Shown here one piece after another: positions 34,404-34,904 of a stretch of 40,089 bases of DNA. A program made the translations under genes and the position numbers. Under the pieces are notes generated by a model that did not search any database, was not told where the DNA came from, and was given only the letters and a program-made list of their open reading frames with translations. Location of the stretch: positions 1-40,089 of the forward strand of contig JBHPDY010000001.1 of assembly GCA_042577605.1 (NCBI GenBank), written 5' to 3'. How positions within the stretch are numbered: position 1 is the stretch's first letter; each line of letters starts with the position of its first letter. Source of the DNA: Candidatus Margulisiibacteriota bacterium (GTDB lineage: Bacteria > Margulisbacteria > Marinamargulisbacteria > JBHPDY01).

Positions 34404-34904
34404 TGCTTCTCCTTTCGTTATTTAAAAACAATTTCAAATAACACTTGTTTATCATAAATATATGTATACCACTAAATTATCGTTTAAGTAGCTTTTGAAA
34501 TTGCACCGAATTATACTGTTATTTGCAAAAGCATTATCCATATTTTCGTTATACCCTAAAAAACAGAGTTTTAAACATGGGTGCTATCGCTATTTTGCGA
34601 AAAGCTCATAATAGATAATTATTAATCAGCAGGTAAACAATTCAAACTAAATAATAATAGTTCTCCTGAAATTTTTTGCGAAAATTACCGATATATATAG
34701 GGAACACCTAATTATTATGGGATTTTTAAGGCTTAGCCCTTAAATAAACCTCATTCTCAGGCGGTGAAGTGCGCAGCACTTCAAAAGACTAAAGTGATAC
34801 TAAAGACCTGTTTGTAACAAATAGAAATTAGGTTTAATATTAATGAAATAGGGAAAAAATTAATTAGATAGCTTTAATAAATAAATATAATTAAGGAGCA
34901 ACTT
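34404..34904. promoter_or_regulatory. 501-bp divergent control region between the two giant genes
   Basis: Both flanking genes start here with AAGGAG Shine-Dalgarno sites. The region contains three TTTGC(A/G)AAA motifs (34522, 34594, 34675) and one REP-like unit (34719..34787). Individual promoters are not resolved. Confidence 0.5.
34719..34787 (+). repeat. Third copy of the double-hairpin REP-like unit
   Basis: Shares the exact 23-mer TGAAGTGCGCAGCACTTCAAAAG (34765..34787) with 10811..10833. The upstream half, GGGATTTTTAAGGCTTAGCCCTTAAATAAACCTCATTCTCAGGC, is similar to the units at 10705..10829. Confidence 0.85.

Follow-up and report, generated by a model that had tools for sequence, protein, structure and literature searches.

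The phyla Margulisbacteria, Omnitrophota, Elusimicrobiota and Peregrinibacteria as well as the PVC phyla are reported to be enriched in very large uncharacterised proteins (bioRxiv 10.1101/2023.11.21.568195; PMC11573180), and none of the huge proteins of the Margulisbacteria and four other phyla has a COG assignment (PMC11573180). The giant proteins described from the Omnitrophota, the largest of which exceed 30,000 aa, are reported to carry transmembrane regions, SecA-like domains and large beta structures (bioRxiv 10.1101/2023.11.21.568195). The locus described here lies in a window of 40,089 nucleotides, a term which denotes the whole stretch of DNA that was analysed, and is composed of two giant genes that diverge from a common spacer:

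19197..34403, minus strand: giant orphan gene 1, encoding a protein of 5,068 aa (580 kDa, pI 9.4)
34905..39995, plus strand: giant orphan gene 2, encoding a protein of 1,696 aa (193 kDa, pI 9.4)
34404..34904, no strand assigned: divergent spacer of 501 bp with a GC content of 0.281

The coordinates, strands and lengths of the open reading frames, their head-to-head layout and the 501-bp spacer are exactly as claimed in the initial annotation, and the extent of the two-gene locus, given there as 20.8 kb, amounts to 20,799 bp. The locus resembles the reported giant proteins (West-Roberts et al.) in size class (at least 5,000 aa), in phylum context and in having no COG or Pfam assignment, whereas none of the features named above for the Omnitrophota giants is present in the two proteins. 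It is best filed as a complete example of the known, uncharacterised class of huge proteins in the Margulisbacteria.

Giant cytoskeletal and motility proteins are also present in wall-less bacteria with small genomes, examples being HMW2 of Mycoplasma pneumoniae and Gli349 and Gli521 of Mycoplasma mobile. The proteins studied here are like them in being very large, lineage-restricted and encoded by neighbouring genes; the mycoplasma proteins have structural or mechanical rather than enzymatic roles, and no homology to them was detected. The Gli proteins are encoded co-directionally in one operon and are membrane-anchored, and long coiled coils make up most of HMW2, in contrast to the mostly 8-25-residue helices of the models obtained here.

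Both giant genes are real, full-length protein-coding genes under selection at the protein level. The stop-free run of 5,074 codons compares with runs that averaged 113 codons and never exceeded 177 in 200 shuffles, so that the giant open reading frames are not a product of chance, and the remaining five frames of each giant gene contain 48-626 stops. The ribosome-binding sites, which had been described as strong AAGGAG sites, can be read directly as AAGGAG-type sites 5-6 nt ahead of each ATG: the 1,696-aa gene has AAGGAG at 34893-34898, with 6 nt between this site and the ATG at 34905, and AAAGGAGAAGCA on the minus strand lies directly ahead of the ATG of the 5,068-aa gene at 34403. Both proteins contain internal tandem duplications:

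aa 3845-4070 of the 5,068-aa protein: tandem duplication, three units of about 70 aa
aa 4607-4940 of the 5,068-aa protein: tandem duplication, two units of about 165 aa with 41% identity
aa 539-784 and 793-1038 of the 1,696-aa protein: tandem duplication, two 246-aa units with 27% identity

The description of both proteins as internally modular thus holds for the duplicated parts, which account for about 11% of the length in the large protein and for about 29% in the smaller one, and does not extend to the remainder, which is without detectable repeats. The nucleotide identity of the internal duplicates is 0.49-0.68 at codon positions 1 and 2 and 0.37 at position 3, the baseline for these values being 0.29-0.31 in unrelated in-frame segments. 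Since codon positions 1 and 2 are conserved and position 3 is not, the duplications must be old and the protein sequence under selection. The 3' ends of both genes are followed by inverted repeats that were read directly from the sequence:

19161..19189, no strand assigned: perfect 10-bp hairpin (AATCCCTACG / CGTAGGGATT), which takes up most of the 43 bp separating the methyltransferase gene from the 5,068-aa gene, the two genes being convergent
40006..40031, plus strand: GC-rich hairpin (GGAGCAGGCC-CAAAAA-GGCCTGTTCC), about 10 nt past the stop codon of the 1,696-aa gene

The former, which has no T-run, is likely to serve as a bidirectional terminator, and the latter is likewise a likely terminator.

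Within the collections searched, and as far as tested, both giant genes are orphans. Pfam, NCBIfam, PHROGs and PADLOC contain no family at or near threshold for either protein, and a sequence search of the PDB with both proteins and two internal-repeat profiles gave nothing even at E values of 1-10. In word-seeded searches of 5.8 billion protein clusters both proteins matched only themselves, and the same clusters contained no match to a profile built from the 246-aa module that is duplicated in the smaller protein. Among 1.84 billion representatives, which were searched exhaustively by phmmer with aa 3869-5068 of the large protein, only the protein itself and P0003 were recovered; P0003 was rejected as a homologue because it is an artefact, a translated tandem repeat. 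The exhaustive HMMER search covers this one 1,200-aa tile of the large protein; the other searches were word-seeded and could have missed remote homologues elsewhere. At the nucleotide level, peptide-pattern scans of metagenome and viral contig collections yielded nothing for the giant proteins, tblastn gave no match in phages (both proteins), in plasmids (1,696-aa protein only) or in 80 fetched genome loci (both proteins), and exact-sequence look-ups of asd and of the 1,696-aa protein returned no other contig. Unlike the NRPS and PKS megasynthases, the two proteins match none of the domains of these enzymes (condensation, adenylation, KS, AT and carrier domains, searched for in Pfam and NCBIfam). 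Proteins of anti-phage defence systems and phages differ from them as well, as no PADLOC or PHROG family and no phage or viral DNA was matched. In contrast to Sec-dependent giant surface adhesins with their Ig-like, cadherin or Big domains, they have neither a signal peptide nor an anchor according to a crude hydropathy analysis, they lack beta-rich repeat arrays and their models are mostly helical. Type I secreted RTX giants differ by their GGxGxD motif, which is missing here, and by an acidic pI, which contrasts with the value of 9.4.

Both giant proteins are rich in Lys, Asn, Ile and Leu (12.4-14.4% Lys, 7.1-7.7% Asn) and are not of low complexity. The absence of signal peptides claimed in the initial annotation agrees with a crude hydropathy scan, in which, with both N-termini inspected, neither a transmembrane segment nor a signal-like hydrophobic stretch was present in either protein; the 1,696-aa protein begins with a Gly/Ser-rich stretch that is non-hydrophobic. 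A motif scan for Walker A, HExxH, CxxC, GxSxG and RTX (GGxGxD) sequences was negative for both, and no Ig-, cadherin-, ankyrin- or LRR-type or other Pfam repeat domain was identified. No similarity was detectable between the two giant proteins or between them and the small orphan proteins encoded further left in the window. Structures were modelled by single-sequence AF2 for the last 1,200 aa of the large protein (pLDDT 36) and for aa 498-1696 of the smaller one (pLDDT 33). According to DSSP of these low-confidence models, the C-terminal part of the large protein consists almost entirely of helices of about 8-25 residues (pLDDT 36), and in the smaller protein helices predominate from aa 498 to about 1220, followed by a region with little secondary structure from about aa 1220 to 1650. 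A Foldseek search of both models against PDB and BFVD gave nothing significant, with generic helical matches at TM values of 0.05-0.1. The top matches of the C-terminal 1,200 aa of the large protein were the alpha-solenoids of DNA-PKcs, Scc3, Nup188 and neurofibromin, which are all-helical as well; with E values of at least 0.39, probabilities of at most 0.08, a TM value of about 0.1 and a query pLDDT of 36, these matches are not significant and reflect only generic helical content.

As no family, catalytic motif or transmembrane segment was matched, the giants are most likely soluble and non-enzymatic. We tentatively favour the reading, to which we give somewhat less than an even chance, that they may be native, lineage-specific, non-enzymatic and largely helical basic proteins with scaffold, structural or interaction functions; a scaffold role would be the default reading for a large helical protein without domains. 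The degrees of confidence attached to this and to the other readings are separate ratings of overlapping claims and do not form an exclusive partition. In the favoured scheme, two genuine, translated giant genes would be native to the chromosome of an undersampled Margulisbacteria-like lineage, the proteins would have grown partly through tandem duplication of modules, and fast evolution together with sparse sampling of the lineage could have led to a situation in which homologues are no longer recognisable.

The chromosomal context of the locus is provided by the genes in the left half of the window, which encode LepA, a PabC-like aminotransferase, a TPR/methyltransferase protein, a FliK-like and an FlhB-related protein, LeuS, a DnaQ-like exonuclease, DapB, Asd and a SAM methyltransferase. 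Further left are genes for a PfkB kinase, a cytidylyltransferase, a metallophosphoesterase and three small proteins without family match. Directly relevant for the giant genes is the following block, which was assigned by family scans and is syntenic with Marinamargulisbacteria MAGs:

16751..19153, plus strand: dapB-asd-SAM methyltransferase block

The best asd matches, which are 63-69% identical, were obtained with Marinamargulisbacteria MAGs in a scan of one genome per species; dapB shows 57-60% identity in the same three Marinamargulisbacteria loci and at most 49% elsewhere. With 69% identity for the nearest asd and 60% for the nearest dapB, the host is a Margulisbacteria-like organism only distantly related to sequenced organisms. 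A methyltransferase gene adjoining asd was found only in the three Marinamargulisbacteria loci and on one Saganbacteria contig among the 80 fetched genome loci. The placement of the giant genes after the dapB-asd-methyltransferase block was confirmed; this block, which is conserved in three Marinamargulisbacteria genomes, anchors the locus to the chromosome. In these three relatives (loci L001, L002 and L022) the block is kept and is followed by minus-strand genes of 315-495 aa; none of the three genomes (asd identity 63-69%) has a giant gene at the syntenic position. Because the relatives are so distant, the missing locus does not imply a recent insertion.

The initial annotation had noted that the giant genes are more A/T-rich and Lys/Asn-rich than the flanking housekeeping genes, and this contrast was recovered, with GC contents of 0.33-0.34 for the giants and of 0.39-0.45 for asd, dapB, leuS and lepA. 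The accompanying caveat that a biased amino-acid composition could underlie the contrast was borne out: when the amino acids of the giants were recoded with housekeeping codon preferences, GC contents of 0.36-0.37 resulted, which means that the amino-acid content explains roughly 60% of the GC deficit and a lower GC3 the rest. The GC3 values of the giants are 0.30-0.31, compared to 0.40-0.50 for the adjacent housekeeping genes; similar values occur elsewhere in the window, namely in pabC (0.32), the cytidylyltransferase gene (0.31), pfkB (0.33) and the three small orphans (0.22-0.31). The synonymous codon preferences of the giants correlate with those of the housekeeping set with coefficients of 0.93 and 0.82, and the codon usage of the two giants correlates mutually with 0.92. 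This composition agrees no less well with native genes that are weakly expressed or evolve fast than with foreign DNA.

The competing view of the origin of the 20.8-kb locus is that it represents a horizontally acquired island, i.e. phage, plasmid or other mobile cargo, which became inserted downstream of the methyltransferase gene. The drop in GC content from 0.45 to 0.35 at the gene boundary is in line with such an event, as are the lower GC3 relative to the neighbouring housekeeping genes, the ordinary genes found at this site in the three relatives and the fact that the locus reaches the contig end, with its far boundary out of view; the lower GC3 and the missing locus in the three relatives are equally compatible with acquisition. 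However, most of the GC deficit is covered by the amino-acid content, the GC3 shift is common to pabC, pfkB and the three small orphans, and the distance of the relatives deprives the absence of the locus of its value as a sign of recent insertion. No tRNA is present in the window, no direct repeats flanking the locus are among the 20 largest repeat families listed, and no integrase- or transposase-type match was obtained for any of the open reading frames tested in the protein-family scans, a check for mobility hallmarks that covers the left side of the locus, the right boundary of which lies past the contig end. Furthermore, the giants show neither phage nor viral similarity, the smaller protein no plasmid similarity and neither of them a PHROG match, and we consider an acquired island to be improbable.

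The divergent arrangement around one long spacer had led to the proposal of co-regulated partners, which in its strict form would be a dedicated, co-regulated divergent pair whose products act in one obligate complex. It is consistent with the head-to-head orientation and with the nature of the two genes, both of which are giant orphans with matching composition and pI and a codon usage correlation of 0.92; if giant genes are rare in this genome, two of them would presumably seldom be adjacent by chance. The spacer has no Rfam match even at E values up to 1, no credible small open reading frame and no conspicuous palindrome that could be a shared operator. The 11-nt direct repeat TTTTGCGAAAA was considered as an operator and rejected, as its frequency is at chance level (7 matches compared to 4.25 expected, with one mismatch allowed). 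Sigma70-like hexamer pairs occur three times in the spacer compared to 4.3 expected in shuffles, their consensus possibly not being that of the phylum, and all three (34608-34682) are minus-strand sites that face the 5,068-aa gene. The 217 nt directly upstream of the ATG of this gene (34404-34620, minus strand) fold with z = -2.4, whereas upstream of the 1,696-aa gene folding is no better than in shuffles (z = -0.6). The 501-bp spacer is room enough for two independent promoters, and divergent orientation by itself is weak evidence for co-regulation. Given also that the two proteins are without sequence relationship, an obligate, co-regulated pair seems a rather poor prospect. In the favoured reading of native scaffold or interaction proteins, each giant gene would probably be transcribed from its own promoter in the AT-rich spacer and end at its own hairpin terminator, and a related role of the products, for example as two components of one large assembly, would be plausible from the adjacency of the genes and their near-identical composition and pI. 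The helical scaffold nature of the giants, their native origin, the independent promoters and any functional coupling are inferences.

Part of the spacer is occupied by a repeat with two hairpins, further copies of which are located in the left half of the window:

34714..34796, plus strand: copy of the two-hairpin repeat, ending about 110 nt upstream of the ATG of the 1,696-aa gene
10705-10770 and 10771-10842, plus strand: two tandem copies of the two-hairpin repeat, which directly follow the TPR gene and precede the FliK-like gene by about 100 nt

The repeat unit of about 66-83 nt is composed of a first hairpin, TTAAGGGC-AAA-GCCCTTAA (TTAAGG..CCTTAA), an A-rich linker, a second hairpin, TGAAGTGC-GCA-GCACTTCA, and a final AAAAG..AAAGTG segment. 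The units align along about 70-80 nt, and the exact 19-mer of hairpin 2 has two occurrences compared to 0.01 expected. A covariance model identified three copies in the 40-kb window, all of them intergenic, and no copy in related loci; Rfam contains no match. An occurrence of the hairpin 2 19-mer in the viral contig L081 was rejected, as the flanks are unrelated. The element resembles REP/BIME repeats in being a short imperfect palindrome with tandem as well as dispersed copies confined to intergenic regions; it differs from them in having only three copies in 40 kb and no Rfam match. The simplest reading would be that of a dispersed REP-like intergenic repeat, and a regulatory site shared with the flagellar gene is less likely. 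Since about 80 bp of the spacer belong to this dispersed repeat, the spacer is not a dedicated shared operator. The position of the repeat on both sides of the junction between the methyltransferase gene and the giant genes places the giants and the housekeeping block in the same genome, and the occurrence of this genome-specific element within the locus and 24 kb away also speaks against an island. A chimeric assembly at the junction is unlikely for the same reason and in view of the correlated codon preferences.

The presence of the repeat upstream of both the 1,696-aa gene and the FliK-like gene has a bearing on the main rival of the favoured reading, namely that both proteins are exported by a Sec-independent route (flagellar-type or other type III, type I, IV or VI, or lysis) and fulfil an effector, adhesion or interaction role toward a host, prey or partner, with arms-race evolution as the cause of their orphan status. 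Extreme divergence is typical of interaction proteins, and the giants share this property. The FliK-like gene (10935-12236, plus strand), which contains the hook-length control domain PF02120, is followed by the FlhB-related gene (12248-12646, plus strand; TIGR00789), and the host therefore encodes components of flagellar export. Export is also suggested by the Gly/Ser-rich, non-hydrophobic N-terminus of the 1,696-aa protein and by the combination of a missing signal peptide with an investment of 20.8 kb in an organism whose relatives have draft genomes of 0.5-2.0 Mb (PMC6784892), and at least one Marinamargulisbacterium is an intracellular symbiont of an animal (PMC6784892). On the other hand, no secretion-system genes adjoin the locus, the proteins have a basic pI and neither RTX repeats nor Ig-, cadherin-, ankyrin- or LRR-type domains, and the shared repeat is read more simply as a dispersed REP-like element. 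We regard export as possible and still on the unlikely side. In an extended form, the two products would be components of a previously unknown, basic and helical giant machine of about 770 kDa, specific to a deep Margulisbacteria lineage and exported or deployed with the flagellar regulon, which would let the cell attach to a host or partner cell or manipulate it. It is hinted at by the cis element common to the upstream regions of the 1,696-aa and FliK-like genes, and we hold it to be very improbable; if true, it would add a protein fold family to those known and represent an interaction apparatus of a new kind. By eye, a sigma28-like AAGTTT-N12-CCGAT sequence can be seen at 10844-10867 near the FliK-like gene, downstream of the repeat; the 1,696-aa gene has no such sequence in its upstream region.

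If both proteins are made, 20.8 kb are devoted to two proteins outside known families, which could be about 1% of the genome, judged by the published drafts of 0.5-2.0 Mb of the closest relatives (PMC6784892). Under the same premise, an investment of this size points to an important lineage-specific function, and the value of the locus is that of a target for proteomics or structure determination as soon as the organism or one of its close relatives becomes available.

Several further observations concern the left part of the window. The three small orphan genes are adjacent and located on the minus strand (2859-3965, 4191-5444 and 5479-6120), encoding proteins of 368, 417 and 213 aa, respectively, with GC3 values of 0.22-0.31, a basic pI and no Pfam or NCBIfam match. 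The 368-aa and 417-aa proteins are tandem paralogues with 35% identity across about 250 aa, and a C-terminal aromatic motif, (C)LYKFF or KYKFF, is common to all three. An overlap of 136 bp (7910-8045) exists between lepA and the longest open reading frame of the pabC-like gene, the family match of which starts only at residue 73, so that the true start is probably located downstream. The open reading frame of dapB aligns only from profile position 58 and is preceded by a 316-bp gap (16434-16751); its start may be mis-set or its N-terminus divergent. Finally, the gene at 8997-10703 (plus strand), which adjoins the flagellar genes, encodes an unusual 568-aa fusion of a Methyltransf_28-like N-terminal region with C-terminal TPR repeats.
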